Assembly (NCBI GenBank): GCA_045606425.1
Contig: JAZURV010000001.1
Span: 6,904-70,903, forward strand
Direction: 5' to 3'
Length of the DNA: 64,000 nucleotides
Source: Candidatus Enterousia sp.
GTDB taxonomy: Bacteria; Pseudomonadota; Alphaproteobacteria; Rs-D84
Part shown: piece by piece, positions 8,365 to 39,007 of the stretch
Layout of the letters: the number at the start of each line of letters is the position of its first letter
How positions within the stretch are numbered: position 1 is the first letter of the stretch
Notes under the pieces: generated by a model
Told to the model about the DNA's origin: nothing
The model's input: the letters and a program-made list of their open reading frames with translations, nothing else
Databases searched by the model: none
Made by a program: the position numbers and the translations under genes

Positions 8365-8379
8365 GGCAAAGGTGTCACG

Positions 8380-12232: not shown

Positions 12233-12292
12233 TATATTCTCGTATTCGCCATGCGCTTCGCTCTGGCGTATCCTTCTGGGCGTTTTCACAAC

Positions 12293-12348: not shown

Positions 12349-12502
12349 GTTTCGCTTCGCTTCACTCCCTTGGCTCATTCGCTGTCGCTCACCGGCATAC
12401 TGCCGTCTGCCTTTCGCCTGCGGGTCGAACCCTCTTGTCGGGTTCTCATCCTTTGGTTGCACCAGATAAATTAAAAACCGGCAAAAGCCGGTTTTGAATT
12501 TA

Positions 12503-12579
12503 TGGCGCGCCCAGAAGGATTCGAACCCTCAACCTTCTGATCCGTAGTCAGATGCTCTATCCAATTGAGCCATGGGCGC
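12503..12579 (-). tRNA. tRNA-Arg(ACG)
   Basis: The reverse complement GCGCCCATGGCTCAATTGGATAGAGCATCTGACTACGGATCAGAAGGTTGAGGGTTCGAATCCTTCTGGGCGCGCCA folds as a cloverleaf with anticodon loop CTACGGA. CCA is encoded. Confidence 0.9.
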
Positions 12580-12623
12580 ATATCGGGGTATATTTTATCC
12601 CTTTTTATCGCGATTGCAAGTTT

Positions 12624-13229: not shown

Positions 13230-13297
13230 GTTTCTTCCTTTCGTTGTTCTCTCTCGCATTTCCTGTGGTACATATAACCAGATTTCCCCCACATCGG

Positions 13298-19077: not shown

Positions 19078-19581
19078 CTAACCCTTCATAAGTCTTGATT
19101 TACTGCGTTCCCATTCGCGTTGTTTGATGGTTTCGCGTTTATCAACTTTGTTTTTACCGTAACCAATACCCAATAATACTTTTAGTTTCCCGCGGTTGTT
19201 AAAATACATTTTTAACGGGACAATGGTTGCGCCTTTTTCCTGTAATTTTCCAATCATTCGATTGATTTGATTGCGGTGTAACAACAATTGGCGTTGACGG
19301 CGTTCGTCAAAATTTACTATACGATTTGCAGTTGGTAATTTCTGAATTTCAACACCTGCTAGAAACAAGTTGTTTCCGCGTCTTTGTACAAAACCATCAG
19401 CGATGGAAACCAGACCATACCGTACAGATTTGATTTCTGCGCCGGTCAATGAAATGCCGGCCTCTATCGTGTCTTCGATAGAGTACGCAAATCGCGCCTT
19501 GCGATTTTCATTCACCATTCCAGATTTTATAATTTGTCGTACCATGTTGACGATTTTATATGATATTTTCCAATTTGCCAA
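19078..19581 (-). CDS. smpB: SsrA-binding protein SmpB
   Basis: NRKARFAYSIEDTIEAGISLTGAEIKS, LLLHRNQI and the C-terminal basic tail. The exact start is uncertain. Confidence 0.85.
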   Translation of the reverse strand: MANWKISYKIVNMVRQIIKSGMVNENRKARFAYSIEDTIEAGISLTGAEIKSVRYGLVSIADGFVQRRGNNLFLAGVEIQKLPTANRIVNFDERRQRQLLLHRNQINRMIGKLQEKGATIVPLKMYFNNRGKLKVLLGIGYGKNKVDKRETIKQREWERSKSRLMKG

Positions 19582-19590
19582 GGTTTTTTA

Positions 19591-19619
19591 TTGAAAATGC
19601 GCAATCTTGTTGCTATAAT
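19591..19619 (+). promoter_or_regulatory. Strong sigma-70-like promoter (TTGAAA-17-TATAAT)
   Basis: Hexamers read directly. It is divergent from smpB. Confidence 0.55.
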
Positions 19620-19625
19620 TTCATA

Positions 19626-19800
19626 TTGAAAGGAACGGTTGTTCCTTTTTGGGTCAAACAACCCATATCGTACGTGTCAGAGATGACATAAAATATCCCA
19701 ACCACTCTGGTTGGGGATCCGTGAATATATTGAATAAACGGAGCAATACGTATGAATTGTTGTTTGTCCCCAACCGCTTTTTTCTCCGCGGTTGTTTTTT
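19626..19800 (+). ncRNA. Candidate ~175-nt structured RNA or cis-regulatory leader, class unassigned
   Basis: It lies between the promoter above and a terminator (CAACCGC-N10-GCGGTTG plus T6). A long-range stem GGGTCAAACAAC/GTTGTTTGTCCC and the internal hairpins AAAGGAAC/GTTCCTTT and CCCAACC/GGTTGGG are visible. Confidence 0.35.
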
Positions 19801-19831
19801 ATTAAAAAAAGTGCAAAAAGGTGGTGATAAA

Positions 19832-20137
19832 ATGCAGTTTTCGAATATTTCAGAATTGGAATTGGCAAATATATTTGTCCATGCAAAGAAAGAAAAAATA
19901 GAAAAACTGTTGGGTGTCAAAAATTTGAACACCCATATCGCCACCGAAATGGTTTATCGTTTTTTAAGGAAACAATCACCAGATTTCTGGAACGATTATC
20001 AAAACAAATATACTGCGTTATTTGACGAAGTATTCTTTTATATGATTGTGGACGAATTACAAACGCGACAAAATTGTGGTAAAAAATTAGATAGCAATTT
20101 TCGATTTGTTGAACCAAATATCGCCTATGTTTCATAA
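19832..20137 (+). CDS. Hypothetical protein (101 aa)
   Basis: The ATG is preceded by aaaaaggtggtg. The longer ORF-track start would run through the terminator. Confidence 0.45.
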   Translation: MQFSNISELELANIFVHAKKEKIEKLLGVKNLNTHIATEMVYRFLRKQSPDFWNDYQNKYTALFDEVFFYMIVDELQTRQNCGKKLDSNFRFVEPNIAYVS

Positions 20138-20884
20138 TTTTATTCGCGGATAAAGTTTTTTAGTGTTTTCCAACAAAATATTTTCCAAATATTCAATTCG
20201 CAGATTTTTGATTTGTGCCAAAACCCGTGCGGTTTCAATCATCATCGATGGTTCGCAAGTTTTGCCGCGGTATGGTATCGGTGCGCAATAGGGTGCATCC
20301 GTTTCAATCACAATGCGGTCAATTGGAATTTTAGCAAATGTTTCGCGCACAGATTCGCTGTTTTTAAAAGTTAAAATACCACTGGCAGAAAAATAAAAAC
20401 CGCGGTCCAACATTACCCTGGCTAAATCCCAAGAAGATGTAAAACAATGCATAACGCCATGATTTTTGTCGGTTAAAATTGCGGCAGTATCATCTTCTGC
20501 TTCGCGTGTATGTATTGCGACCGGTAAATTGTGCGCCTGTGCGATTCCCAGTTGTTTTTCAAATAATTCGATTTGGGCGTCGCGTGTCTGTGGTTCATAG
20601 TGGTAATCCAGTCCGATTTCGCCCACACCGATAACCAACGGATTGTCTAATATTGCATCTGTTAAATATTCGTATGGGTCTGTGCCGGCGTAATCAGGGT
20701 GAATCCCAGTCGTCACAAAAATATTTTCATGATTTTGTGCGATGTTCAATGCAGATTTTATATCCTTTGGGTCTGCAGTTGCGCAAACCATCGCACCAAT
20801 ACCAGAATTTTTTGCGCGTTCAACAACGGCGTCAACGCCACCGTCGTATTCGTCCGTTAAATGGCAGTGTGTGTCTATAAACAT
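20132..20884 (-). CDS. tatD: TatD-family metal-dependent hydrolase
   Basis: MFIDTHCHL, GEIGLDY, AIHTREA and ETDAPY motifs. Confidence 0.85.
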   Translation of the reverse strand: MFIDTHCHLTDEYDGGVDAVVERAKNSGIGAMVCATADPKDIKSALNIAQNHENIFVTTGIHPDYAGTDPYEYLTDAILDNPLVIGVGEIGLDYHYEPQTRDAQIELFEKQLGIAQAHNLPVAIHTREAEDDTAAILTDKNHGVMHCFTSSWDLARVMLDRGFYFSASGILTFKNSESVRETFAKIPIDRIVIETDAPYCAPIPYRGKTCEPSMMIETARVLAQIKNLRIEYLENILLENTKKLYPRIKL

Positions 20885-21777
20885 TTTTTGATATCGTTGA
20901 TTATTTTGAATATTGTTATATCTGGTTTCAGATTCAATTTGTTTATATCGGCTATCGCACGGTTTGCATCGGGATAAATGTCTGCCAATCCCAAATATGC
21001 AATCGCGTCCAACACAATCCCGTAAAGGGCAGGCGAAATGGCTATGTTTTCTGCAACAGCCATCATATCGCTGGCGTTAGAGTGTTTGTCTTGCAGAACA
21101 TTTAATAAATTTTCGTAAATGATATCGCCACCGGTTGCTTTCAAATTTGCGATTTTACCGAAACTGCCGTTTGATAATTTCAGAATATCTGTGCTTATTT
21201 CTTCATCGCACATAAAACGCACACACAATTCGCGCAATTCAGACATTGTCAACGGGTGCATTTTTTCAACACGTGCGCGTGAACGCACAGTTGGTAATAC
21301 TGCAGACAACTGGTGGGTCACCAATAAAAACAAAGTCTGTTGTGGTGGTTCTTCTAATAATTTCAATATGGCGTTTTCTGCTGCCACAGATAATTCATCA
21401 ACTGCGTCAATTAAAACAACACGCCATTGACCGGACATAGATGACATTTGCATACGGTCAATCATGTGCCGCACAGTGTTGACCGATATCTGTTTTGCAT
21501 CGGATTTAATGTTGCCTTTGTCGTCCAGATTATGCGCCAAATCGATAATAAAGAAATCGCCGACATTTCCGTAAACCTGTTTCGCGATTTTATACGCCAG
21601 TGTTGCTTTCCCGATACCGCGTGGACCGCATAACATCCACACAGGATGAATCGGGTGTGTTTCGCGATTGTCCCATGCGTCCATAAACGTCTTTAATGTG
21701 TCTTGGTGTCCAACCAAGCAATCATTATCCATTGGGTTGGGAAAATCGAACAAGACTTCCTTTTTGCGTGCTGCCAT
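20875..21777 (-). CDS. holB: DNA polymerase III delta' subunit
   Basis: HPVWMLCGPRGIGKATLAYKIAKQV, LLKLLEEPP and SRA(R) sensor motifs. Confidence 0.75.
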   Translation of the reverse strand: MAARKKEVLFDFPNPMDNDCLVGHQDTLKTFMDAWDNRETHPIHPVWMLCGPRGIGKATLAYKIAKQVYGNVGDFFIIDLAHNLDDKGNIKSDAKQISVNTVRHMIDRMQMSSMSGQWRVVLIDAVDELSVAAENAILKLLEEPPQQTLFLLVTHQLSAVLPTVRSRARVEKMHPLTMSELRELCVRFMCDEEISTDILKLSNGSFGKIANLKATGGDIIYENLLNVLQDKHSNASDMMAVAENIAISPALYGIVLDAIAYLGLADIYPDANRAIADINKLNLKPDITIFKIINDIKKCL

Positions 21778-21778
21778 A

Positions 21779-22957
21779 TTATTTGCCCCCCAACGCCACG
21801 GATATATTTTTAATCAAACGACCAAAGAACAATATTTTACGAACTTTGTTTTTTGCAACCAACGGAATGCGTTTTATGACATCGCCATTTTTTTCGATAA
21901 CAACTTCGCCGATTTTCTGCCCAGCGCGTACAGGGGCACTGATTGGTTCGTTATAACGCGCCAAAACACGAATGTTTTTTAATGATTCTTCGCGGGGCAA
22001 AGTAATCGCGACATTTTCATCAACTGTGGCTTCGACTGTTTGTTTTACACCATACCACACAGGAACCGAAACCAACACATCGCTCGGTTTATAGAATACT
22101 TTTGTTTGGGTGTTTTTATAACCATGGTTTAACAATTTTTTCATTTCTTCGGCCAATGCGTCATGCCCGCGCCCACGAAAACCGTTTATAACACCAATCA
22201 GCCGCCGTCCCCCGACCCGTGCACTGGCAACCATTCCGTACCCACCGTCATCAGTGTGTCCTGTTTTTAATCCGTCAGCACCAGGCATTGAAAATAATAA
22301 TTTGTTATAATTCAGTGTATGTGTGCGTGTCCATTCTCCGCACCATTCGGTTTTTGAATCGCCAAATTCAAATCGTTTTGTTGCAAACATTGGATATATA
22401 TCAGGATATTCATCTATAATATATTTTGCCAATATTCCCAATTCTTTCGATGTCATTAAATTGTTTTCGTGGGGCAGGCCACTGGCATTGCCGAATGTAG
22501 ATTTTTCCATACCGATTTCGCGTGCTTTTTTAGTCATTAAATCTGTAAATTTAGATTCGTCACCGGCAAAATGTTCTGCCACAACCACAGATGCGTCACC
22601 TGCAGATAATACGATTATACCCAAAATTGCATCGCGCACAGTGATTTTCTGTCCGTTTACCAGGCACAATTTGCTGGCGGGATACCACAATGGGTTTTTA
22701 TAATCTGCGTTTTCAGATGCAGTCAGTAAATCGTCCATATTCAATTTCCCAGATTTTATCGCGTCAAATAAAACGGTCAGTGTCATCAGTTTCAACATGG
22801 ACGAAGGCGCCATCAGGTTATCTGCATTTTTAGATACAATTTCCATGCCGCTGTCGTAATCCAATAAATAGGCAGATTTAGCGTTTGTCTGAAATTCTGT
22901 GGCATTTGTTGCGCCACAAATCAAACACGATAATAAAATCAGGAACTTTTTAATCAT
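21779..22957 (-). CDS. D-alanyl-D-alanine carboxypeptidase (PBP5/6 family, S11)
   Basis: Signal peptide, SxxK (PSSMLKLMT), KTGHT and a C-terminal PBP5_C-like domain. Confidence 0.8.
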   Translation of the reverse strand: MIKKFLILLSCLICGATNATEFQTNAKSAYLLDYDSGMEIVSKNADNLMAPSSMLKLMTLTVLFDAIKSGKLNMDDLLTASENADYKNPLWYPASKLCLVNGQKITVRDAILGIIVLSAGDASVVVAEHFAGDESKFTDLMTKKAREIGMEKSTFGNASGLPHENNLMTSKELGILAKYIIDEYPDIYPMFATKRFEFGDSKTEWCGEWTRTHTLNYNKLLFSMPGADGLKTGHTDDGGYGMVASARVGGRRLIGVINGFRGRGHDALAEEMKKLLNHGYKNTQTKVFYKPSDVLVSVPVWYGVKQTVEATVDENVAITLPREESLKNIRVLARYNEPISAPVRAGQKIGEVVIEKNGDVIKRIPLVAKNKVRKILFFGRLIKNISVALGGK

Positions 22958-23056
22958 AATGCCAAAATCATAGCAATAATAATGTCCTTTTCCAACAATT
23001 TTTTATAAAAAAATACGCGGTGTTAAAAACCGCGTATTTACAACGAAAAAAGACAA

Positions 23057-26953: not shown

Positions 26954-27049
26954 ATTGTATTGTATTGTAATTTATGGTGTCGGTTTTTCAAGCTTTTTCT
27001 TGATATTTGATACTTTGTGTACAATCATAATAAAAAAAGAGGTTTTGCA

Positions 27050-27811
27050 ATGATCCCAAAAATTTCCGTTTTTATGCCCGCGTATAATTCAGAAGCATTT
27101 ATAGCAGAGGCCATAGAAAGTATTTTAAATCAAACTTTCAAAGATTTTGAGTTTATAATAATAAATGATGGTTCCACAGATAATACGTGGAATATAATAC
27201 AAAAATATGCAAAACAAGATGACAGAATTCGTGCGTATTCCAGATGTAAAAACAAAGGAATTGTTTGTACGGCAAATGAAGGTTTTGACCTGGCTAGGGG
27301 TGAATATATTGCCCGCATGGACAGCGATGATGTGTCTTTGCCAGAACGTTTTGAAAAACAGATAACATATATGGATGAACATCCGGATGTCGGGCTGCTT
27401 GGGGCATGGACACAATATTTTCCGGGATTTGATATTTCCAAACGGCCAGAGAATATAGATTTGTTTTATCTGTTAAAAGATTGTCCGGTGGACCAACCTG
27501 TTGTAATGATAAGAAAATCAGTCATAGATAAATATAATTTACGATATGATGGAGATTATTTGGCATGTGAAGATCAAGAATTATGGTTCAGATTGATCAA
27601 GGTTTCCAAAATAGCAAACTTGCAAGAATTGTTATTGAAGCACAGATGGCATGGAAATAATATATCAATCAAAATGGGCGATGTTCAACAACAAAATATT
27701 CAAAAAATTCGAAAACAGATTTTAAATTTCATAACAACATCCCCAGAACAGCAAGATGCTATAGCTAAGATTATACCAGAAATGTTTGAGCCCTTGGTAT
27801 TAAAATCTTGA
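27050..27811 (+). CDS. Family 2 glycosyltransferase
   Basis: ISVFMPAYNSEAFIAEAIESILNQTFKDFEFIIINDGSTD and ARMDSDD motifs. Confidence 0.85.
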   Translation: MIPKISVFMPAYNSEAFIAEAIESILNQTFKDFEFIIINDGSTDNTWNIIQKYAKQDDRIRAYSRCKNKGIVCTANEGFDLARGEYIARMDSDDVSLPERFEKQITYMDEHPDVGLLGAWTQYFPGFDISKRPENIDLFYLLKDCPVDQPVVMIRKSVIDKYNLRYDGDYLACEDQELWFRLIKVSKIANLQELLLKHRWHGNNISIKMGDVQQQNIQKIRKQILNFITTSPEQQDAIAKIIPEMFEPLVLKS

Positions 27812-27857
27812 CAACTATATATTTTGTGCTATATGTATAAAAACAAATGGCAAGAAC

Positions 27858-29309
27858 ATGAAATTTGAAGATGGCACCACTTTGATACAATTATCTGATA
27901 ATGTGTACTGTTTAAATAATGCTTATCGTCAGTCGCAAATTTTTGGTGACCGCACATTAAAAGCTGTTTTTGAAAATTTATCCAAAAATAATTATGTAAA
28001 TTCTGATAGTTACAATATACTGTTACATAATAATTTTTTAACAAATCAAAGACCAGATGTATACAAGCAAAAATTATTGCAAGATTCTGTTAAATATAGT
28101 ATACAACCAAAATTTAATTTGTTGCGAATTTTGCTGACTGATGTTTGTAATTTAAATTGTGATTATTGCAAAGTTATAAAATTAATAGATGCGCCGTCGG
28201 CGAAACCAACACAACCAGAACGTTTAGAAAAGGCTATAAAGTTTTTCTTTGAAAATTCTACTGCGGCAGAACCAAAAATAATTCATATTACTGGTGGTGA
28301 ACCCACGTTATTTTTTGACAGTATAAGACAAATAATACAATTCAAAAATACTTATGCACGTCCAAATGAAAATTGTTGGATTGTTGTTGGAACAAACGCG
28401 ATTGCTATAACTCCGGAAAAAGCACGTTTTTTCGCTGATAATAACATGAAATGTATTGTGTCAATGGACGGACCAGAACAAGTACATAATATTTTACGAA
28501 AAAATCATGCTGGTCAGGGAACATGGTCACAGGTCGATAAAAATATTAAATTGTTGCAATCTTTTGGTGTAGAAATATCTATTTCTGCTGTGATGGGAAA
28601 ACATACAATTTATCAGGCCGATGAAAATATCTCTTTTTTGATAAATGAATATAATCCAACTGGCCTAGGTATTAACTTTATGAAGCCACCGACTACAAAT
28701 TCTAGCGATTATAAATATTTAATTGATGAAAAATTATACGCAGAAACAATGTATAGATTACATCAAAAATATCGTACGCGTGGCGTGTTTTTTGAGCTTA
28801 TTTTCAGACACTTAGAGCCTTTTGTAAAACAAAATTTCAGATTTCATGATTGTGGGGCAGCGGCCAGCCAAAATTTGAATATAGATGCCAAGGGCAATAT
28901 CGGACCCTGTAAGTCATTTTTGTTGTGGAACAAGATGGCAATGAAAGATATAAATATCCAAGAATATAGCAATATTGTATCTGAAAATTGGGAAAGACGC
29001 TCACCAATTCATTTCGAACCATGTCAAAATTGTTCATGTATTGGTATATGTGGAAATGGGTGTGCATATGATGCTTTTATCAATAACCGAGATATGTTGG
29101 CCATAGATACCAGGGGCTGTAAATATGTAAAATGTTTTTATGATTTGTTTTTAAAAGATTTATATGAAATATCGTGCAAAACACATGAGGGGCAAAATAT
29201 TTTTGTGCCATCTCAAGCGGACAGACAACAAATGTTAGGAAATGTAAAGGAAATTCAAAATTCTTTAAGTTATTCAATTGGACACCAAACGAAACATTTT
29301 CAAAAATGA
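27858..29309 (+). CDS. Radical SAM/SPASM-domain enzyme with a ~95-aa N-terminal extension (possible PqqD-like peptide-recognition element)
   Basis: CNLNCDYC (CX3CX2C at residues 97-104), ITGGEPTL, and the SPASM-type Cys clusters CGAAASQNLNIDAKGNIGPC and CQNCSCIGICGNGCAYDA. The N-terminal YCLNNAYRQSQIFGDRTLKAVFENL resembles an RRE. Confidence 0.75.
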   Translation: MKFEDGTTLIQLSDNVYCLNNAYRQSQIFGDRTLKAVFENLSKNNYVNSDSYNILLHNNFLTNQRPDVYKQKLLQDSVKYSIQPKFNLLRILLTDVCNLNCDYCKVIKLIDAPSAKPTQPERLEKAIKFFFENSTAAEPKIIHITGGEPTLFFDSIRQIIQFKNTYARPNENCWIVVGTNAIAITPEKARFFADNNMKCIVSMDGPEQVHNILRKNHAGQGTWSQVDKNIKLLQSFGVEISISAVMGKHTIYQADENISFLINEYNPTGLGINFMKPPTTNSSDYKYLIDEKLYAETMYRLHQKYRTRGVFFELIFRHLEPFVKQNFRFHDCGAAASQNLNIDAKGNIGPCKSFLLWNKMAMKDINIQEYSNIVSENWERRSPIHFEPCQNCSCIGICGNGCAYDAFINNRDMLAIDTRGCKYVKCFYDLFLKDLYEISCKTHEGQNIFVPSQADRQQMLGNVKEIQNSLSYSIGHQTKHFQK

Positions 29310-29908
29310 TAAAAAGAAGTACTTTGTTTTCTGTTTTAATAACTGGATACAGTATTTTAAATCGACGCAAAAACTTTGTGCATAATTTTAGCCATAGTAA
29401 ACGTGTTTTTTATAATAATATATGTATTTTGGGGGTGCGTGCGATTCCTTTCCTTCGCGTTTTATTATTGACTTCGATATGGCATGATGTTGGACAAAGT
29501 GATTTTAAACAACAGGCTAAATATCATCATATATATTCTGCCAGATTATTCAAATATTTTACCAAAGAAAATAAATACACAGATATCGTTGTGAATATAA
29601 TTTTATGTCACAGAAATCGTGGTGCAAATGCGCAATATTGCCCAAAAACATTATTACAACAGGCCTTTTTTGATGCTGATAAATTGGACGTGTTAAATAT
29701 ACCACGGTCAAAAAAATTGATAAAAATGTATTCGCGTGGTTTTTCATGTGGTGAATTTAATATCAAAGATACAATTCGTTTTTGGGAAGATTTTATCACA
29801 AATGGTGAAAATATTTTATTTTTAGAAAAATCTAAGAAATTATTCTGTCAAAGAAAAAATGCTTTCGTAAAATTTATATCCGAAATCAAAGGAAAATATA
29901 ATGTCTGA
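29306..29908 (+). CDS. HD-domain phosphohydrolase
   Basis: An H...HD...H...D pattern (IWHDVGQ, YHHIYSA, ILCHRNRG, FFDADKLD). ATGA overlap with the radical SAM gene. Confidence 0.55.
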   Translation: MIKRSTLFSVLITGYSILNRRKNFVHNFSHSKRVFYNNICILGVRAIPFLRVLLLTSIWHDVGQSDFKQQAKYHHIYSARLFKYFTKENKYTDIVVNIILCHRNRGANAQYCPKTLLQQAFFDADKLDVLNIPRSKKLIKMYSRGFSCGEFNIKDTIRFWEDFITNGENILFLEKSKKLFCQRKNAFVKFISEIKGKYNV

Positions 29909-31268
29909 TATGGAGAAAGTAGAAATTACAAATATGGATGTTTTTTTTGATTATATTAAAAAACATTTTTTTACCGGCATCATAGATCAGCACTATTTAT
30001 TAAACAACACGCCGAACGGTGTATTGAATTCCATTTTAGAATCGTTAAAACAAGAGTTGTCGCCTGATAATGTAAAACAAATAAAAAATATATTGTTTTA
30101 CAAATGGATTTATACAAATGGTATGAAATCTTTGTTGCTGGACCAACAATCAGATTATATTGTAAAAACGGATGCAGGATATGAATTTGTGCCAAGGCAA
30201 GAACTTTACGGACATTTATTACAAATCAAAGATTATTTTGATTATATGATAGATTTTTATATTAAAAAAAATATGTCTTATAAATTGAAATTGGCCCTGT
30301 TTACATCGGAAACATTTGAATCTGCGTTTCGCAAGGCCAATATTGAATTTGAAAAACGGGTAAAAAGAAATTCTGCGTTGGGCATAGATAATGAAAAAAA
30401 TATTTTAATGCATCTTGATAATGAATATAAGCTTGTAAAATTAAACACAGTGTATGATTTGGATTATGAAGGGTTATGTATCGGGCACTGTATTGGCGAG
30501 GGTATCTTGGACAAAGAAATAAATGATAAAAAATCAACAATAACAGTTTGTTCTTTGCGTAAAGATATGTTGATGAAAGAACGCATATCTGGAAAAAACA
30601 TAATTCGGTCAATACCTTTTGCTTCAATTGTCATAGATCGTTTTGAAAAACGTCTAAACGGAAAATTATATGGCAATGTAATTTCCATTGAAGGACATAT
30701 CGCAGGCACAGTAAGATATTATCTTAAAAACAAATTGGAAAAACAAGATGCATGGAAAGGCAGATTTCCACCATACGTTCATGCCACGCCAATATCAAAC
30801 GAAGAAATTATATTTCGTGATACAGAATTACAACAAACACTGATAAATTTATTTATGCAAAACGAATTGGTAATATGTGGCGAAAGAAAATATACGCCAT
30901 GTTTGACCAAAGATTATAATATTGGTATGCCAACAACATATTCTGTACGCGTTAAAAACCAAGATGATTTAATTCGCGTCGCCAGTCACGGATTTCATCA
31001 TATTGTTGTCCCGTCATATGATATTTTTGTGTCAACAATTCAACCGATTAAGGTGGAAACTTTTGATAACAAAAATACAATAGATATAACAAAAGCTGGA
31101 ACATACGATTTAACAGAATTGCAAAATTTAAATACAATAAATGTTTTTGCGAATTGTGTGACAATATATTGTTATAATTGTAATAATTTACAACGTGTGA
31201 ATCGTTCGCCGGATACAAATGTGTTGATGGAGCGTAATAAATATAATATTATACAAAATATTCGTTAA
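29901..31268 (+). CDS. Hypothetical protein with a PcfJ-like central motif
   Basis: LDYEGLCIGHCIGEGIL ... ITVCSLR resembles the EG..M.HCV ... I.SiR core of PcfJ-like (PF14284) proteins, from memory. It overlaps the HD gene by 8 nt. Confidence 0.35.
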   Translation: MSDMEKVEITNMDVFFDYIKKHFFTGIIDQHYLLNNTPNGVLNSILESLKQELSPDNVKQIKNILFYKWIYTNGMKSLLLDQQSDYIVKTDAGYEFVPRQELYGHLLQIKDYFDYMIDFYIKKNMSYKLKLALFTSETFESAFRKANIEFEKRVKRNSALGIDNEKNILMHLDNEYKLVKLNTVYDLDYEGLCIGHCIGEGILDKEINDKKSTITVCSLRKDMLMKERISGKNIIRSIPFASIVIDRFEKRLNGKLYGNVISIEGHIAGTVRYYLKNKLEKQDAWKGRFPPYVHATPISNEEIIFRDTELQQTLINLFMQNELVICGERKYTPCLTKDYNIGMPTTYSVRVKNQDDLIRVASHGFHHIVVPSYDIFVSTIQPIKVETFDNKNTIDITKAGTYDLTELQNLNTINVFANCVTIYCYNCNNLQRVNRSPDTNVLMERNKYNIIQNIR

Positions 31269-31279
31269 GGGATGTTTCA

Positions 31280-32149
31280 ATGAAAATATACAAAGATGGA
31301 TGGTTAAAAACCGACGGCAAACACAAGATTTATTATATGCAATTGGGCAATCCAAATGGGATTCCGGTTTTGTCTTTTCATGCTGGTCCTGGTGATTGTT
31401 CATGGGCGGGATTTTATGATTTTTTGGACGAAACAAAGTATAATATTATAACATTCGATCAGCGTGGTTGTGGAAAATCTGAACCGTTCGGTGAAATCGC
31501 GGATAATACAACCGACAAAATTTTGACCGATGCAAAGGAGTTGTTGGATTTTATAGGGATTCGCGAAAAATGTATTTTATTCGGTGGATCATGGGGCTCT
31601 GCATTGGCGTTGTCTTTTGGCGCCAGATATCCAGACACAACAAAATCATTGGTGTTGTCAAATGTTCTGTTGGGGCGTCATCACGATTTAAAAAAACTTA
31701 TGTGTGATTTAAAAATTTTTAAGCCATTATCAAATTACAATGTTGATGAAAGTAATATATTTTTGAAAATAAAACATGCAATACAAAATAATGACATTGA
31801 ATTTATATCAAAATACAATGATTATGAAATATACAAATACACTTTTCATAAAAATAACGGATTAAAAACAAATTTAGCTGGTAAAGATTTTTTGCAAAAA
31901 CGTCTATATTGTCATTTTTTATGTAATAATTTATTTTTGCCGGATAATGGTATTGTGGATGAATTGACCGCGCTATCGGGAAAGCCGATTTATTTGGTGC
32001 ACAATAAATACGACCCAATATGTAATATAGAACAGGCGCATCTTTTAAAAAAACTGTTGCCACAAACCGAATTGGTCGTGTTAAATAAACGTGGACATGG
32101 GGGCGATTTTCAAATTGACACAATTAAAAAATTCTTTAAAAAAGCTTAA
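31280..32149 (+). CDS. Prolyl aminopeptidase-type alpha/beta hydrolase (S33)
   Basis: FHAGPG, FDQRGCGKSEP and GGSWGSALAL motifs. Confidence 0.75.
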   Translation: MKIYKDGWLKTDGKHKIYYMQLGNPNGIPVLSFHAGPGDCSWAGFYDFLDETKYNIITFDQRGCGKSEPFGEIADNTTDKILTDAKELLDFIGIREKCILFGGSWGSALALSFGARYPDTTKSLVLSNVLLGRHHDLKKLMCDLKIFKPLSNYNVDESNIFLKIKHAIQNNDIEFISKYNDYEIYKYTFHKNNGLKTNLAGKDFLQKRLYCHFLCNNLFLPDNGIVDELTALSGKPIYLVHNKYDPICNIEQAHLLKKLLPQTELVVLNKRGHGGDFQIDTIKKFFKKA

Positions 32150-33341
32150 TATATGCCTGGTTTACCCTGGATATCCACCATACGAACGGGAGTCTGGGGG
32201 AATTGCATCTTATGTCCAAGAAAATGTAAGGTTTTTAACCGCCATGGGGCATAATGTTGTTGTTATTTCGCGTGCACCGGATATATCGCATGTTATAGAA
32301 ACAAATACCGATAAAACAAAAATAATATATTTGCCTCATTTTCTGCCGCGCATCTGCAAATTTTTTACCCCGCTAAAATTTAATAAATATGGTGCATATT
32401 TTTATTCATACAAAGCATATAAACAATTAAAAAAAATAGAAAAAGAAAATCATATTCACTTTGATGTCATCGAAACCAGCGATTGGGGCGGCGAAGGTTA
32501 TTTCTTTGTAAAAAAATTCCAAGACAGGACAATTATAAAATGTGACACCCCCAGTTTTATATCGGAATCATACAACCCCAACAATCCAGCGTATCTAAGT
32601 TCTTTTGTAAAGAAATTGGAACAAAGAACATTATTGAATGCGAAAAACATTGTCACAAACAGCAAAATTTTGATGCAAAAAATCTGTGCTGTGTTGCACA
32701 AAGATTTACCATTCACATTGGTACAATTGTCAATAAAAACAACACCAATTAAAAAAACAAAATACACCAATAAATTTTCAAAAAACAATCCAATGAAAAT
32801 AATATTTTCTGGTCGCATAGAAGAACGCAAAGGGATTTTTGGTTTAATAGATGCTATAAAACAACTTCGAAAAAAAGGATTGTATATAGAACTTCATTGC
32901 TTTGGTGCGACAACGCCAATGAAACATACGGACAGTATAACACTATTAAAAAACGAGGGGTATAGTTGGCTCCATTTTTATGGACAAATTCCCAGAGACC
33001 AAATAATGAAAGAATATAAAAATTACGATTTGTGTGTTGTGCCGTCAGTGTTTGATAGTTTTTGTCTGACAGCATTAGAAGCGATATTTTCAAAAATTCC
33101 AACTATAGTTTCCGATACAACAGGCATTTCAGATTTAATATCGGATAAATTTCTTGTCTTCTCTTTTCCCATAGATATTATATCAAAAATAAATGATGTG
33201 TATTTTAATTACGCATCCTATGCAAGAAAGACAGATTTGGTATTGAATGATTTACTTTGTAAAACCGATAGGGCAAATATCGATCGTATGACATATTATT
33301 TTAAAATCGCCAAACAAAATAATTTAAAATCAAAGTGTTAA
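32091..33341 (+). CDS. GT4-family (GT-B) glycosyltransferase; start uncertain
   Basis: ICLVYPGYPP...GGIASYV N-terminus and C-terminal PSVFDSFCLTALEAIFSKIPTIVSD. The ORF start overlaps the preceding gene. Confidence 0.7.
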   Translation: MDMGAIFKLTQLKNSLKKLNICLVYPGYPPYERESGGIASYVQENVRFLTAMGHNVVVISRAPDISHVIETNTDKTKIIYLPHFLPRICKFFTPLKFNKYGAYFYSYKAYKQLKKIEKENHIHFDVIETSDWGGEGYFFVKKFQDRTIIKCDTPSFISESYNPNNPAYLSSFVKKLEQRTLLNAKNIVTNSKILMQKICAVLHKDLPFTLVQLSIKTTPIKKTKYTNKFSKNNPMKIIFSGRIEERKGIFGLIDAIKQLRKKGLYIELHCFGATTPMKHTDSITLLKNEGYSWLHFYGQIPRDQIMKEYKNYDLCVVPSVFDSFCLTALEAIFSKIPTIVSDTTGISDLISDKFLVFSFPIDIISKINDVYFNYASYARKTDLVLNDLLCKTDRANIDRMTYYFKIAKQNNLKSKC

Positions 33342-33605
33342 CCATAACTTGTTTGATAAAAGCACAAAAACCTGTCTGTGTTTAAAAATCGAAAATATGC
33401 CAATTATTTCTATCTTAAGATATTTGTTTCAATATCTTATGCTTTAACATATTTGTATCACTCATATATAATCTTTTAGTTGCCGAACCCTAAAAAAAAC
33501 ATATCTATTCAGGAGAAAACCGGCATTGGGATTTTGGGCAAGGTATATAAATTGCGAGAATTTGGGTTGGTTGGGTGCAAGTGGCGATATACATTGGAAA
33601 CATCA

Positions 33606-33688
33606 TGGGTAAAATCTGCCAGAAACGGGGCGAAAAAGAACATCCCGCGGAATTACCACGGGATGTCTAAACTTAGTGGCGGAGATGA
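33606..33688. repeat. 83-bp perfect direct repeat, copy A (contains tRNA-Ser 3'-end sequence on the minus strand; tRNA identity continues to ~33697)
   Basis: tgggtaaaatctgccagaaacggggcgaaaaagaacatcccgcggaattaccacgggatgtctaaacttagtggcggagatga is identical to 38651-38733. Confidence 0.9.
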
Positions 33689-33900
33689 AGGGATTCCATC
33701 GGCTTTCGCCTACGGGGCAACCGTAACGACTATGAGTAAACGAAAACGAGTGTTTACGAAGTTTGAGTGCTAACGAATGCCGCGTAGGACAAAGTCCGAG
33801 GGATTTTGGTGCGTTTGCACTTCCAAAATCTACTTGTTGTCGAACCCTGCAACTGCGTTGCAAACGATTCAAATCTGCCAATATCTCCGCCAAAAATTAG
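33689..33900. other. ~210-bp non-coding segment bounded by inverted copies of the tRNA-Ser 3' core (TGGCGGAGAT ... ATCTCCGCCA), with several local hairpins
   Basis: Hairpins GTAAAC/GTTTAC, GATTTTGG/CCAAAATC and GCAAC/GTTGC, followed by the terminator-like ccccgcaaaagcgggg at 33901-33916. Confidence 0.4.
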
Positions 33901-34160
33901 CCCCGCAAAAGCGGGGTAAATTCCTGGCGGAGTTGTAAGAAAGAACGGTATTAGATATGATAACTACAGGGTATTTACAGGGAATTTTTACGAAAAACAA
34001 CCAGTTTTACCATAAGTCGTGCTGCTGTAACGCTGTAAAATCGCCACTTTTACAAAAAATTCCCTACTTAAAAAGCAGGGAATTACTTCGCATTAACAGG
34101 GAATTTTGTTTTGCAATTTTGTAAAAATCACAGTTTTGTAAAATGTGTTTAACAAAAATG

Positions 34161-34189
34161 TTGATTTTGTTGTTTTTGTAAAGTATAAT
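34161..34189 (+). promoter_or_regulatory. Sigma-70-like promoter of the ATPase-protease operon (TTGATT-17-TATAAT)
   Basis: Hexamers read directly. RBS aaaaagggg follows, then the ATG at 34215. Confidence 0.5.
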
Positions 34190-34214
34190 GTTATTAAACA
34201 AAAAGGGGCTTTAT

Positions 34215-35564
34215 ATGGCATCTGAAACACTTATATCACGTCCAGAATATACAAACAAGCTGAAAAACTGGCTTGGTCAAACCGACCTTGTAAAAATAGT
34301 TACAGGGGTTCGTCGTTGTGGAAAATCTAAATTATTAGAATTGTTTGGTTTGGATCTTTTGTTTGGTAACGTTGCCACTAGTGACCATATACTATCTATA
34401 AACTTGGAAGATCCAGTTTTGACAGGCAAAATAGGTTTGAAACTGAATTCTGATGGTTTGCTGCAAGATTATCAAACGTTATTGGATTATATATTATCAA
34501 AAGTCAAAGATGATAAAACATACTATGTTTTCATAGACGAAGTTCAACTTGTAGAAAATTGGCAGGTAGTAGCTAATGGATTACGTATGCGTGGCAACAT
34601 AGATGTATATTTAACTGGATCTAATGCATATATGTTTTCCGGCGATATAGCAAATTCTTTTGGTGGACGTTATGTTGAAATAAAAATGCAACCGCTATCT
34701 TTTGCAGAATATTTCAGCTTTTATAGTCAGAGTTTTAATCATCAAATAAAGAAACGTGAAGATTTAGAAAAACATCGTAATCCTTACGCTATATATGAAG
34801 ATTATATCCATGAAAGTGGCTTTCCACAGGTGCAAAAGTTGGTGCACATGGATGATAAACAGGTTATAACAGATTATCTGATGGATACCGTGTTCCGAAA
34901 TGCTATACAGAAAGACATAGTAAAACGTTTTAATATAGCTAGCGACAATAAATTAGATGTCGTGACAAGATATTTGTTTGATAATATAGGGCGTGATACT
35001 TCTGTGCGTAATATAGAACGCTGTTTAAAAGATGCGGGTTATAATATATCTGCACCAACAATAGACACATACATAAAAGGATTATTGGATAGTTTCTTGA
35101 TGTATAAATGCGAAAGATACGATGTCAAAGGTAAAAAAATATTAAGTGGTGATGCAAAATATTATGTGGTCGATGCAGGTTTGCGTTACGCATTATTGGG
35201 CGACAAAGATACAGATGCTGGTCGTATACTGGAAAATGTTGTGTATCTTGAATTGATACGTCGTGGATATAACGTGTCTGTGGGTAAAATACAAACACAA
35301 GTAAGAAACGAAGAAGGCAAGGCTGAACGCAAAACAATAGAAGTCGATTTCGTGGCAACCAAGCCAGGTGGACAGGTAGAATATTATCAAGTTGCGTGGG
35401 GTGTTTTGAATAATGAAGATGTTGCAAAACGCGAATATGCATCATTGGAACAAATAAAAGATAATTATCCAAAATACTTGTTAACTATGGATTATGGTTC
35501 TGGCGAACAAAACGGCATAAAACGTCTAAATGTTTTGGAATGGTTGTTAAATATGGAACATTAA
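34215..35564 (+). CDS. AAA-family ATPase (AAA_14 plus DUF4143 architecture)
   Basis: Walker A GVRRCGKS and Walker B YVFIDEVQ. The C-terminal IEVDFVATKPGG.VEYYQVAW resembles the nuclease-fold-like DUF4143 tail. Confidence 0.7.
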   Translation: MASETLISRPEYTNKLKNWLGQTDLVKIVTGVRRCGKSKLLELFGLDLLFGNVATSDHILSINLEDPVLTGKIGLKLNSDGLLQDYQTLLDYILSKVKDDKTYYVFIDEVQLVENWQVVANGLRMRGNIDVYLTGSNAYMFSGDIANSFGGRYVEIKMQPLSFAEYFSFYSQSFNHQIKKREDLEKHRNPYAIYEDYIHESGFPQVQKLVHMDDKQVITDYLMDTVFRNAIQKDIVKRFNIASDNKLDVVTRYLFDNIGRDTSVRNIERCLKDAGYNISAPTIDTYIKGLLDSFLMYKCERYDVKGKKILSGDAKYYVVDAGLRYALLGDKDTDAGRILENVVYLELIRRGYNVSVGKIQTQVRNEEGKAERKTIEVDFVATKPGGQVEYYQVAWGVLNNEDVAKREYASLEQIKDNYPKYLLTMDYGSGEQNGIKRLNVLEWLLNMEH

Positions 35565-36530
35565 ATGTCTGAAGGATTAATTTACTGTATAAGCCCTGTA
35601 TTATACCATGATGTATCTACTGAATATTCTTATAGAAGAGGAACGGCTTTTTATACGCAGTATTCAGAACGATTGTTTGCCATAACGGCCAGTCATTGTA
35701 TAGAGAAAAATGATATTAATAATTTGTTTTTAGGTTTAAATCCAAGTAAAAGACGGAATTATAAAATTCCATTAAACAAACAGATTAATGTTAATTACAC
35801 AGATGGTGCAGAAATTGATTCTGATATCAGAATATTTGAGATAGATCAAATATCTATTATGAAAAATTTAGCAGAAAGAACCCAAATTAGATCATATGAT
35901 GACATGGTTAAAGAAATTAGATGTACTCCTTTAGCAAAACGATTATTAAAAAAATATAAAAATCAACCAGAAAAATTTCGTGAAGCATTGATGAAAACAA
36001 CAATGTTTAAAACTATACACGGAAGACAACTTGATGAAATTGAAGATTCGCTTGAAAAAGCTGACACGTCTTTGGCGGATATAAAAACATTGGAATTAAC
36101 AAAAGATATTATTCTACAACCAGGAGATCCTTTTGCTGCTGTTGGTTTTCCAACGGAGCCATCTGGGGACAAACTTAAAATGACAGATGATGGAAAAATT
36201 ACGGGTTGGCATTTTTCATATGCGGAATGTGATCTTACATATATTGAAACACATCAAAAATGTGGTGATTATGTTTTTTCTTACGATAAATCTTTAGATT
36301 TAAATGGTTTTAGCGGTGGACCAGTAGTAGGCGCAAATAATAAAGTTATAGGTGTTTTAAGTTGGGGAGAAAAAGAGAAAGGGCTGGTATATGTTACGCC
36401 AAGTGTGAATGTAATAAAAGCTATTGATAGTATAGTCAAAAATACGCCAGATGAATTTTCTTTATGCACAGATATACCATCTGGTATAGAACAAGAATTG
36501 TTAAAATTGATTTATAAAAAAATTGATTAG
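35565..36530 (+). CDS. Trypsin-like (S1/chymotrypsin-fold) serine protease with a ~100-aa helical insertion
   Basis: His motif ITASHC, Asp candidate SDIRIFEID and Ser motif GFSGGPV. The start codon abuts the ATPase stop (TAAATG). Confidence 0.65.
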   Translation: MSEGLIYCISPVLYHDVSTEYSYRRGTAFYTQYSERLFAITASHCIEKNDINNLFLGLNPSKRRNYKIPLNKQINVNYTDGAEIDSDIRIFEIDQISIMKNLAERTQIRSYDDMVKEIRCTPLAKRLLKKYKNQPEKFREALMKTTMFKTIHGRQLDEIEDSLEKADTSLADIKTLELTKDIILQPGDPFAAVGFPTEPSGDKLKMTDDGKITGWHFSYAECDLTYIETHQKCGDYVFSYDKSLDLNGFSGGPVVGANNKVIGVLSWGEKEKGLVYVTPSVNVIKAIDSIVKNTPDEFSLCTDIPSGIEQELLKLIYKKID

Positions 36531-36644
36531 CAGACAGTACACGTTTTCTGCGGCAAAATCATTTTCAACAAAAAAATGAATATAAAAAATATTTTTGTAC
36601 TTTCTTGCACCGAATCGTGATTTTTGCTATTTTTATTACAAAGG

Positions 36645-36680
36645 AAAGGAAGATTGCTAAACAAAGCGCTTCCTTTTTTG
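36645..36680 (+). terminator. Intrinsic terminator after the protease gene
   Basis: Hairpin gaaaggaag-N16-cttccttt followed by a T-run. Confidence 0.5.
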
Positions 36681-36742
36681 TTTAATAAGTTTAACACGGA
36701 GAGATAACAAAAGGGGGGAGAAAGAAGGAAAGGAGGTGTACA

Positions 36743-38062
36743 ATGAGTGCACTAGTATTTGAAAATTTAAAAGTTGCGGATGTTCATGGTTATGAACATA
36801 ACGCAAAAACACATCCTGAATCTCAGGTACAACAGATTATATCTTCTATAACCAAATTTGGTTTTAATAATCCAATATTAATCGATGAAAACAATGAAAT
36901 TATCGCGGGCCATGGTCGTTTTTTGGCTGCTCAGGCAATGAATCTGGAAACTGTTCCAACGATAAAGCTTTCACATTTAACGGATGCGCAAAAACGCGCT
37001 TATAGATTGGCAGATAATAAGATTGCCGAAAATGGCGGCTGGAATAAAGAATTGCTAAGCCTTGAAATCAAAGATTTAGAAAAAATATGCCTGGACGATA
37101 ACTTTGTAATTCAAGATATCGGATTTAATGATGCGGAATTAGATTCAATCATTAACTTCACAGATGCAAAACCAATCAATCAGAAAACCAATGCTGTGCC
37201 ATTTATCCCAGAAGATGAAATCATATCCAAACCTGGTGATATATGGCAATTGGGCAAACATCGCATTATTTGTGGCGATAGTTTAAACTCAGATACATTT
37301 GTGAAACTGTTTGATGGTAAAAAGGCAGATATGGTTCTGCAAGATCCACCATATAATGTGAAAATTGATGGGCACGTCTGCGGTTCAGGTACGGTAAAGC
37401 ATAAAGAATTCGCAATGGCATCGGGGGAAATGACCACAAATGAATTCACAAAGTTTTTGGAAACCAATTTCAATCTATGTAAACAGTATTCCAATGATGG
37501 TTCTTTGCACTATAACTTTATGGATTGGCGTCATGTTTTGGAAATCACAACCGCGGGTAAGAATGTATTTGATAAATTCATCAATATGTGCGTATGGGTA
37601 AAAACATCTGGTGGTATGGGCAGTTTATACAGAAGCCAACACGAACTATGTTTTATATTCCAAAATGGCAAACAATCACATAATAACAACGTCCAATTGG
37701 GTAAATATGGCAGATACAGAACCAATGTATGGCAATACCCAGGCGTAAATGCGTTTGGCAAACACAAAGACGAAATACAAATGCATCCAACGGTTAAACC
37801 CGTAGAAATGATGAAAGATGCGATATTGGATGTATCCAAACGTGGCGATATTGTGTTAGATTGTTTCCTTGGTTCAGGTAGCACTTTAATTGCCTGCCAA
37901 CAATCTGGGCGTATTTGTTATGGCATAGAATATGAACCGCTTTATATAGATACAACAATACGGCGCTTTCAGAATTTATTCGGCATAGATGCGATAAATT
38001 TATCCGTCAACAAAACATACAACGAATTATTGAAAGAATACAAAGGGGGAAATAATGTCTGA
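36743..38062 (+). CDS. ParB-like nuclease domain fused to a beta-class DNA methyltransferase (N6-A or N4-C)
   Basis: ParBc N-terminus (NPILIDENNEIIAGHGRFLAA...RAYRLADNKI), DPPYN (motif IV), then the later DCFLGSGST (motif I). Confidence 0.8.
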   Translation: MSALVFENLKVADVHGYEHNAKTHPESQVQQIISSITKFGFNNPILIDENNEIIAGHGRFLAAQAMNLETVPTIKLSHLTDAQKRAYRLADNKIAENGGWNKELLSLEIKDLEKICLDDNFVIQDIGFNDAELDSIINFTDAKPINQKTNAVPFIPEDEIISKPGDIWQLGKHRIICGDSLNSDTFVKLFDGKKADMVLQDPPYNVKIDGHVCGSGTVKHKEFAMASGEMTTNEFTKFLETNFNLCKQYSNDGSLHYNFMDWRHVLEITTAGKNVFDKFINMCVWVKTSGGMGSLYRSQHELCFIFQNGKQSHNNNVQLGKYGRYRTNVWQYPGVNAFGKHKDEIQMHPTVKPVEMMKDAILDVSKRGDIVLDCFLGSGSTLIACQQSGRICYGIEYEPLYIDTTIRRFQNLFGIDAINLSVNKTYNELLKEYKGGNNV

Positions 38063-38459
38063 TTATGAAATAGGATATGGTCGCCCACCAAAATCAACAC
38101 GGTTTAAACTAGGTCAATCTGGTAATCCAAAGGGTCGTAAAAAAGGTTCTATGAATCTTGATACGATTTTGATGAAGGCTTTGGATGCGAAAATAACCGT
38201 TGAAACACCAGCCGGTACAAAGCGTATTACTAAAAAAGAAGCGATAGCTATGAGATTGGTAAACAAAGCGGCTATGGGCGATCCTAAATCAATACAAACA
38301 CTGTTGCCTTGGATGTCTAAAGTAGAAGAACGCAACAAATTAATCGCGCAAAAGTTAGAAGATGTAACCGAACAAGATGATATGATAATAAAAGGTTTTA
38401 TAGATGGTATCAGGACGAATAACGCCGCAACGTCAACTGCAAGCAATATTGAGGAATAA
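38055..38459 (+). CDS. DUF5681-type phage protein (small-terminase-like)
   Basis: GYGRPPKSTRFKLGQSGNPKGRKKG is the hallmark N-terminus of this family. It precedes a large-terminase fragment. Confidence 0.6.
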   Translation: MSDYEIGYGRPPKSTRFKLGQSGNPKGRKKGSMNLDTILMKALDAKITVETPAGTKRITKKEAIAMRLVNKAAMGDPKSIQTLLPWMSKVEERNKLIAQKLEDVTEQDDMIIKGFIDGIRTNNAATSTASNIEE

Positions 38460-38715
38460 CTTTAAAAGTTTTGTTATCAAGGTATTTCAAACAGTATCGA
38501 ATGATACATACCTTGATAACTGGCATATAGACGTTGTGTGTAATGAAATAGAACAAATGATATCTGGTAAAAATACAAGATTGATTGTTAATTTGCCACC
38601 ACGTAATATGAAATCCATTATTTGTTCTGTTGCATTACCTGCGTATTTGTTGGGTAAAATCTGCCAGAAACGGGGCGAAAAAGAACATCCCGCGGAATTA
38701 CCACGGGATGTCTAA
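38404..38715 (+). pseudogene. Phage terminase large subunit, N-terminal fragment truncated at the 83-bp direct repeat
   Basis: DNWHIDVVCNEIEQMISGKNTRLIVNLPPRNMKSIICSVALPAYLLGK is a terminase N-terminal ATPase motif. The frame then runs into repeat copy B and stops. Confidence 0.6.
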
Positions 38716-38733
38716 ACTTAGTGGCGGAGATGA
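38651..38733. repeat. 83-bp perfect direct repeat, copy B
   Basis: Identical to 33606-33688. Confidence 0.9.
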
Positions 38734-38827
38734 TTTTTTCTTGATAAACAATAATAAAAATCTATAAAAACTCGTATTAAAAAACTCCGTTTTTATGATT
38801 TTTCTAATTGTTCATCTGCGGATTGGT

Positions 38828-38923
38828 CATGCGCAACTTTGTTGCTCTGACCCATCCCTTCATCCCGCCTGTTAAAACCAAAAACCCGCCAAAAGGCGGG
38901 TTTTAAAGTTTTAATGTGGCGGA
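38828..38923 (-). repeat. Direct-repeat copy R1b (native 3' flank of tRNA-Ser, including its terminator)
   Basis: Near-identical to 24373-24466. It contains the hairpin aaaacccgcc-aaaa-ggcgggtttt. Confidence 0.85.
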
Positions 38924-39007
38924 GATGAAGGGATTCGAACCCTTGATACCGTTGCCGGTATACCACATTTCCAATGTGGCGCACTAGACCAACTATGCGA
39001 CATCTCC
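38917..39007 (-). tRNA. tRNA-Ser(GGA)
   Basis: The reverse complement GGAGATGTCGCATAGTTGGTCTAGTGCGCCACATTGGAAATGTGGTATACCGGCAACGGTATCAAGGGTTCGAATCCCTTCATCTCCGCCA has a long variable arm and anticodon loop TTGGAAA. Confidence 0.9.

Follow-up and report, generated by a model that had tools for sequence, protein, structure and literature searches.

The locus described here raises the question of whether two adjacent genes, one encoding an ATPase with AAA_14 and DUF4143 domains and the other a trypsin-like serine protease, form a defence system or are separate genes that lie side by side. Both are located in a stretch of 64,000 nucleotides (nt) from Candidatus Enterousia sp. (assembly GCA_045606425.1, contig JAZURV010000001.1, positions 6,904 to 70,903 of the forward strand), which is referred to as the window. 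In an initial annotation, made from the sequence alone, the pair was described as a self-contained operon and a candidate uncharacterised defence or abortive-infection module. Part of this description stood, in that the genes are found in a mobile, defence-like setting and the ATPase by itself is a candidate for defence. A two-gene system, however, was not supported. It is likely that the ATPase and the protease are two independently inherited accessory genes, found next to each other in a decayed prophage at a tRNA-Ser gene. No conserved two-gene system is evident, because in related islands the place of the protease is empty or taken by another gene, and because the ATPase is catalogued as a single-gene candidate.

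Conservation of the two genes as neighbours had been set beforehand as a test of the pair. It was found in none of six ATPase lineages and at none of the protease loci with readable flanks. The six lineages have ATPases 67–95% identical to that of the window, and within the DNA available for each locus none contained a protease homologue. Their identities are 95% (L002–L005), at least 90% (L023 and L024), 82% (L006–L008), 78% (L021), 76% (L009–L011) and 67% (L022). A short open reading frame (ORF) after the L022 ATPase was considered as a possible protease start and proved to be unrelated on inspection. In the L002-type islands, present in four separate metagenome assemblies, the ATPase is intact and the protease is missing. 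When the window was compared with L006, L009, L021 and L022, whose flanks are unrelated, DNA homology began at 34106–34120 and ended at 35530–35566, at the stop codon of the ATPase gene. The limits of the cassette agree in six other contexts, none of which has the protease. These limits imply that the unit of inheritance is the promoter together with the ATPase gene.

The region that follows the stop codon differs between otherwise similar islands. Three sets of islands, with flanks that are 89–93% identical, differ only from the ATPase stop codon to window position 36546–36555. In the window this slot contains 0.98 kb, which is exactly the protease gene. In L002–L005 (four separate assemblies) it contains 26 nt with the hairpin GCCGCAGAAATCTGCGGC, of which the window retains only the right arm. 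In L023 and L024, which represent a more complete prophage with an intact large terminase gene (TerL), it contains 1.56 kb with a convergent gene for a 478-amino-acid (aa) ABC ATPase resembling PtuA/AriA (PADLOC, 1e-38). These alleles indicate that the slot is a variable cargo site of the prophage family and that the protease is one interchangeable occupant. Besides the three alleles, this reading is based on the identity of the island relative to that of the genomes and on the low G+C content at third codon positions (GC3) of the protease gene. The core genes at 19079–23018 (SmpB, TatD, DNA polymerase III delta' subunit and PBP5) are about 76% identical to those of L002, compared with 90–93% for the ATPase island (33925–36999). 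The island is thus closer between the genomes than the genomes themselves are, which points to its recent horizontal exchange between related gut Alphaproteobacteria. The GC3 of the protease gene is 0.174, versus 0.26 for the ATPase gene and 0.327 for the methyltransferase gene of the island. Judged from these comparisons, the protease most likely arrived by insertion rather than having been deleted in L002. The L002 spacer was also compared with the 5' and 3' ends of the protease gene for relics of a deletion; the matches were too short to decide.

In L023 the slot gene (7347–8783, minus strand) encodes a PtuA/AriA-like ABC ATPase that stands alone. Right after TerL the same contig carries a reverse transcriptase gene (12256–13287, minus strand; PADLOC RT 7e-39, with weaker matches of the DRT UG17 type). 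Both genes appear to be additional cargo of this prophage family.

The initial annotation had proposed a run of PADLOC, in which the ATPase was recognized as the single-gene candidate PDC-S01. The match to the PDC-S01 model (PDLC04787, E=2.9e-126) extends from residue 10 to 455 of the protein and from 6 to 408 of the 412 positions of the model. PDC-S01 is a single-gene phage defence candidate of PADLOC that was untested in its source (bioRxiv 10.1101/2024.01.29.577857; PMC12988326). According to PMC12988326, it consists of an ATPase joined to a PD-(D/E)xK domain and ranks fourth in frequency among the defence calls made in prokaryotes. One representative has been assayed in Escherichia coli B and did not protect against T4, T5 or T7 (bioRxiv 10.1101/2024.09.26.614923). 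Homologues of the window ATPase are abundant, with more than 7984 at E<=1e-20, many of them about 60% identical.

The Pfam domains of the ATPase are AAA_14 (PF13173, 2e-29, residues 35–175) and DUF4143 (PF13635, 1e-18, residues 241–404). As the initial annotation had stated, the Walker A (GVRRCGKS) and Walker B (FIDEVQ) motifs are intact; both are conserved in the 120 best homologues. DUF4143 has been placed within the PD-(D/E)xK superfamily (PMC3424549). In the window protein the C-terminal motif of this fold reads EVDFV...YYQVAW (residues 376–394, window 35340–35400). The acidic-x-Lys of the usual motif is missing from this subfamily and QVA stands in its place, a substitution that is conserved in the 120 closest homologues. 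Nuclease activity of the ATPase is uncertain because its motif is not D...ExK. The domain with this fold may lack catalytic activity or may rely on different residues for it. A structure search retrieved no solved structure for the ATPase. Neither NCBIfam nor PHROGs contain a family that covers the ATPase or the protease of the window.

The longest ORF of the ATPase gene is 34188–35564, with an internal ATG at 34215 that is almost certainly the true start. The first ATG of the longer ORF overlaps the –10 hexamer, and the protein of the public gene call has 449 aa. Moreover, each of the four homologous cassettes that were aligned retains the ribosome binding site (RBS) AAAGGGG and the sequence ATGGCA.

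The protease belongs to a very rare family. An exhaustive HMMER search among 1.84 billion proteins yielded 18 representatives at E<=1e-10, a number that rose to 68 at the looser cut-off of E<=1e-3. This search revealed the family; a word-indexed homologue search returned only the protease itself and one relative. When an alignment of five protease sequences was used as locus query, two genome loci and two metagenome loci were obtained. The window protease and its homologue P0190 had no match in cultured phages. No match was found in a plasmid search, nor in IMG/VR contigs when three protease sub-alignments were used. The loci with readable flanks comprise four or five of the close clade and five of the distant clade (about nine others besides the window). 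At none of these was a DUF4143 ATPase found within 6 kb of the protease, as assessed by tblastn with the window ATPase as query and by a Pfam search confined to the larger ORFs.

The close relatives of the protease (30–40% identity) are stand-alone genes in contexts other than tail modules. A defence-type gene adjoins the protease in three of four of them. In L012 the neighbour is a divergently oriented Fic-MerR gene with a match to SoFic/PDC-S04. In L013 the protease gene is divergent from a gene for a helicase of the Type III restriction endonuclease type (PADLOC, 1e-169), with an integrase-like gene downstream, and in L001 it is convergent with a SNF2 helicase gene. In the fourth, L014, it is located downstream of a CI-like repressor gene. 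L001 contains the closest relative. At positions 1–29 of this contig an upstream ORF ends in ...EFEFEENE, with a TGA stop codon that overlaps the GTG start of the protease (GTGA). This tail is unlike the conserved C-terminus of the window ATPase subfamily.

The distant clade (P0190, P0142, P0191 and P0192) aligns end to end with the window protease, the insert described below included (pairwise E=1e-16), and keeps the catalytic His and Ser motifs. Three of its loci are phage tail modules (L016, 5897–6718; L017, 4953–5774; L018, 6001–6627). On all three contigs the protease homologue is found among genes for a DUF1833 minor tail protein, an NlpC/P60 gpK-like protein and a gpJ-like central tail fibre protein, between the last two. 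The start of the protease homologue overlaps the gene in front of it, and its stop directly adjoins the next start. The N-terminal part of the gpJ-like protein matches phrog_32, a 'tail assembly protein'. The existence of this tail-module clade implies that the protease family either originated in phages or includes a branch from them. To our knowledge, the position between gpK-like and gpJ-like tail genes has not been described for a trypsin-like protease.

The window protease was predicted from its sequence to be an active cytoplasmic endopeptidase. Its Pfam matches are confined to the C-terminal half (Trypsin, 1e-8; Trypsin_2, 2e-7). With a family profile both halves of the protein could be covered, and H44 (motif TASHC), D87 (DSDIRIF) and S250 (GFSGGPV) were aligned onto His57, Asp102 and Ser195 of granzyme. 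This bears out the S1 signatures noted in the initial annotation, in which the Asp had been a candidate only. H44 and S250 are near-invariant in the family and D87 is kept in most members. A signal peptide was not apparent by inspection, again as annotated; the AlphaFold model (pLDDT 84, pTM 0.83, from a 19-sequence alignment) assigns residues 9–16 to a strand of barrel 1. Neither Pfam nor the model gave a PDZ domain. In the model, helices at residues 95–172 separate the two beta-barrels. A helical insertion had been annotated and is present, its length being about 78 aa instead of the approximately 100 aa given. Foldseek searches of PDB and BFVD gave generic chymotrypsin-fold matches only (elastase, trypsin and the protease domains of HtrA, DegS and DegP). 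The probability was 1.0 for elastase, trypsin, HtrA and DegS, with TM-scores of at most 0.72 on target length and at most 0.49 on query length. The low value on query length is due to the helical insert, which has no counterpart in the PDB or BFVD structures. The insert would probably gate or target the active site.

The two genes are intact and abut (TAAATG at 35562–35567), as had been noted initially, and they are probably co-transcribed from a conserved promoter. The annotated promoter was found as a –35 TTGATT (34161–34166) and a –10 TATAAT (34184–34189) with a 17-nt spacer, matching the consensus at 10 of 12 positions in a promoter scan. Such matches are not enriched in the AT-rich DNA of the window, 11 being found versus 16.7 expected. 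An alignment of cassettes from four genomic contexts showed that the approximately 105 nt upstream of the ATPase start, including the hexamers, the TTTTGTAAA motifs and the RBS, are near-invariant. This conservation across contexts is better evidence for a promoter than the consensus scan. TTTTGTAAA is present in three direct copies (at 34117, 34134 and 34174) within 66 nt (34117–34182) that overlap the ATPase promoter, and the third copy extends into the –10 box. The copies are conserved in the four unrelated genomic contexts. A further copy is found on the minus strand at 34049–34057, and the whole window contains 8 copies versus 4.4 expected. Given this arrangement, the repeats could be an operator. 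The protease is taken to be read from the ATPase transcript, because its start forms part of the TAAATG junction and no promoter is present between the genes. The pair had also been credited with its own terminator, which is weakly supported. RNA folding predicted a hairpin with a U-run at about 36642–36680 (z=–3.3), and a consensus terminator scan called none on the plus strand after the protease gene. The hairpin lies outside the protease insert, within a spacer common to L002 and L023. It therefore belongs to the backbone, as the spacer is shared with islands that lack the protease. From its position, it may terminate an ATPase–protease transcript.

The coordinates of the window features are collected in the Table. 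The island (33689–38650) is bracketed by perfect 83-nt direct repeats, the left one at 33606–33688. GTGGCGGAGATGA is present in three copies in total (33606–33696, 38651–38733 and 38916–38936), the last of which repeats 21 nt of the left copy. The hairpin of the left copy was called on the minus strand (33667–33639). Between the right copy, which ends in a partial att site of 13 nt, and the intact tRNA-Ser gene a stretch of 183 nt (38734–38916) is present. This layout suggests two successive or tandem integrations at the tRNA-Ser gene followed by deletions. In L021 a tRNA-Ser gene 94.5% identical to that of the window is found 2.8 kb from the ATPase cassette. The G+C-rich stretch 33400–33900 was considered as an RNA gene; Rfam gave nothing meaningful, and the stretch proved to contain the tRNA-Ser 3' fragment and the terminator repeat.

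By its gene content the island is a decayed integrative element or prophage remnant, in which the pair lies next to a ParB-methyltransferase gene as had been annotated. The Pfam domains of the methyltransferase are ParB_N and N6_N4_Mtase, and a restriction enzyme to go with it was not recognized in any ORF of the 33.3–39.1 kb island. TerL is a fragment in the window and intact in L023 (493 aa). No integrase is left in the window island. A plus-strand cluster at 27017–33341 encodes a GT2 glycosyltransferase, a radical SAM protein, an HD protein, a 455-aa protein without family match, an alpha/beta-hydrolase and a GT4 glycosyltransferase. The last also passes the Pfam cut-off for GT4-conflict (PF20706, 48.9 bits). 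A block of about 23.7–33.6 kb is missing from the syntenic relative L002. The glycan-type cluster to the left (24–33 kb) is outside the island.

Table. Positions of the ATPase, the protease and the surrounding island features in the window.
Feature	Position	Strand	Evidence or content
Left att-like repeat	33606..33696		70 nt of tRNA-Ser terminator hairpin and 21 nt of tRNA-Ser 3' end
5' control region of the ATPase cassette	34110..34214	+	–35, –10, three TTTTGTAAA, RBS AAAGGGG; homology and alignment
AAA_14 + DUF4143 ATPase, 449 aa	34215..35564	+	Pfam, PADLOC PDC-S01, residue conservation
Variable cargo slot	35565..36546		blastn breakpoints 35564–35566 and 36546–36555; junction alignments
Predicted cytoplasmic S1 chymotrypsin-fold serine protease, 321 aa	35565..36530	+	Triad H44/D87/S250, insert residues 95–172
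Backbone spacer	36547..36742	+	88–90% identity to L002 and L023; includes hairpin and U-run
ParB_N + N6/N4 DNA methyltransferase, 439 aa	36743..38062	+	Pfam; PADLOC MTase_II 9e-85
DUF5681 protein, 134 aa, just upstream of TerL	38055..38459	+	Pfam 2e-20; phrog_26239; order identical in L023
TerL fragment, cut at 38650 where the right repeat begins	38404..38715	+	phrog_4758 2e-17
Right repeat copy, 83 nt	38651..38733		Terminator hairpin and 13 nt of tRNA-Ser 3' end
tRNA-Ser(GGA), integration target of the island	38917..39007	–	ARAGORN, Rfam

If the two genes are independent, the following course of events can be envisaged. The ATPase cassette moves between genomes as a unit that ends at the stop codon and brings its own conserved sigma-70 promoter and a possible operator. 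The protease gene would have been inserted from a more AT-rich donor behind the ATPase gene, replacing the left arm of an L002-type hairpin, and would probably be translated by re-initiation at TAAATG. Each gene would then most likely act alone as conflict cargo of the prophage, with the ATPase using NTP to sense or cut nucleic acid and the protease working as a stand-alone enzyme of phage origin. Several observations weigh against such independence. The abutment at TAAATG and the lack of an intervening promoter couple the expression of the two genes, which is how a working pair would look, and a sensor NTPase with a trypsin-like protease is an established combination in defence (PMC12799240, PMC12642450). 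Furthermore, only about nine other loci of the protease family could be examined, several of them on short contigs (L019 and L020 are 2–3 kb long, and L001 has only 25 nt upstream of the protease). L002 is itself a more decayed remnant, which bears on the choice between insertion and deletion.

In a rival explanation, the pair is a newly assembled two-gene defence module. PDC-S01 would sense infection and activate the protease (or be licensed by proteolysis), and the protease would kill or arrest the cell; so young a pairing would not yet be seen elsewhere. The single conserved promoter and the translational abutment fit this explanation, as do the two intact active sites, the prophage-borne, defence-like setting with a PtuA-like ATPase in the L023 slot, and the repeated acquisition of trypsin-like proteases by defence systems (PMC12799240, PMC12642450). 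We nevertheless regard it as unlikely. A second instance was found neither among the 1.84 billion representative proteins nor at the loci to which these led, and the closest relatives keep the ATPase intact without the protease. Known modules have the protease fused to the sensor and a latent effector, none of which is adjacent here, and the PDC-S01 representative that was assayed gave no protection against T4, T5 and T7 (bioRxiv 10.1101/2024.09.26.614923). A related suggestion concerns the protease itself. The S1 protease with the helical insert might found an undescribed, phage-derived cytoplasmic family, with one clade in tail modules and another as stand-alone cargo of defence hotspots, of which the window copy would be starting to be coupled to PDC-S01. 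The cargo clade might, for example, cleave incoming phage tail or assembly proteins, or a host target, and thereby abort infection. This is put forward as speculation, and we would expect it to be wrong rather than right.

The protease could instead be a tail-morphogenesis gene stranded by decay of the prophage, with no role in the host and no link to the ATPase. A full-length homologous clade is indeed found in three tail modules, between gpK-like and gpJ-like genes, and the window island is a prophage remnant. The window copy, however, is located upstream of the packaging module and not in a tail module. The more complete L023 has a different gene at this position, which implies a cargo slot and not a structural position. 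The closest relatives stand alone in non-tail contexts, and the window ORF is intact with the full triad kept. This makes a stranded tail gene quite improbable. Least credible is that an HtrA/DegP-type protease, with a housekeeping role or secreted for quality control, lies beside a generic ATPase by chance. The top Foldseek matches do include the protease domains of HtrA, DegS and DegP. Against this, the protease has neither signal peptide nor PDZ domain, its family numbers 18 representatives at E<=1e-10 among 1.84 billion proteins, it is absent from close relatives of this genome, it is located in an att-flanked island, and it matches no NCBIfam family. The initial annotation had named a prohead-protease or housekeeping function as an alternative identity for the pair; the protease proved to have a chymotrypsin fold and no PHROG match.

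Independence of the two genes thus remains the preferred reading, and it separates what is adjacent and co-transcribed from what is a system. Searches for defence modules in raw sequence depend on this distinction. Three modest leads that can be tested follow from the locus. A cargo slot with three alleles in prophages of uncultured gut Alphaproteobacteria is the kind of place that yields new defence genes. The second lead is the very rare S1 family with a conserved inter-barrel insert, one clade of which is found inside phage tail modules. For the abundant and unvalidated PDC-S01, the conserved promoter with its repeated TTTTGTAAA offers a handle on regulation. Should the emerging coupling of a phage-derived protease to PDC-S01 prove true, the window would be a snapshot of a single-gene candidate recruiting a protease effector. 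Current understanding is unchanged unless experiments show activity.

How does the locus compare with known systems? No paper on a DUF4143–protease pairing was found in the literature, in agreement with the annotation of the pair as not a named system. For the ATPase alone this no longer applies, as it is the PDC-S01 of PADLOC. The window ATPase resembles PDC-S01 in having the same two-domain architecture and a full-length match to its hidden Markov model; all sequence criteria agree. Like PDC-S01 it consists of one gene, which is transferred together with its own promoter as a unit. There is no essential difference, the subfamily of the window reading YYQVAW at the usual (D/E)xK position.

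Sensor NTPases with trypsin-like proteases are an established logic in Hachiman, Avs, Lamassu and DRT modules, and defence systems have acquired such proteases repeatedly (PMC12799240, PMC12642450). The window likewise has a predicted cytoplasmic trypsin-like protease beside an NTPase in a mobile, defence-like setting. In the trypsin-effector modules, however, the protease is fused to the sensor, whereas that of the window is a free-standing protein of 321 aa with a neighbour that is not conserved. In these modules (trypsin-MBL, canu, Pepco and EACC1) the protease is also paired with a latent effector, being MBL, an alpha/beta-hydrolase, Pepco or EACC1. None of these four is found next to the window protease, which is flanked by the ATPase and the ParB-methyltransferase. 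The nearest alpha/beta-hydrolase gene (31280–32149) is 3.4 kb away, outside the att-flanked island and within the glycan-type cluster. The PADLOC matches of the protease are weak (RT-Protease_XI, 1e-11; LmuA, 4e-9) and confined to its catalytic C-terminal half. A module of the trypsin-MBL type was therefore rejected, as the protease is neither fused to a sensor nor conserved beside one and has no adjacent latent effector.

Prohead proteases are of the S78/U35, S49 or ClpP types and adjoin portal and capsid genes. This identity was rejected as well, given the chymotrypsin-type fold, the lack of a PHROG match and the lack of portal and capsid genes in the remnant. A further parallel is offered by the variable hotspots for defence genes and other cargo in prophages and satellites, such as P2/P4-like elements. 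As in these, alternative, unrelated cargo in the prophage family of the window is enclosed by conserved flanks, with the ATPase to the left and the ParB-methyltransferase and terminase to the right. The slot differs in that only three alleles were seen and in belonging to another phage family, of uncultured gut Alphaproteobacteria. The protease itself shares with the PA-clan S1 enzymes (chymotrypsin, HtrA and V8) the double beta-barrel, the His-Asp-Ser order and the TAxHC and GxSGGP motifs. It differs from them in its predicted cytoplasmic location, in lacking both a PDZ domain and an N-terminus of the disulfide-rich or zymogen kind, and in the inter-barrel helical insertion of about 78 residues, which is conserved across its small family.

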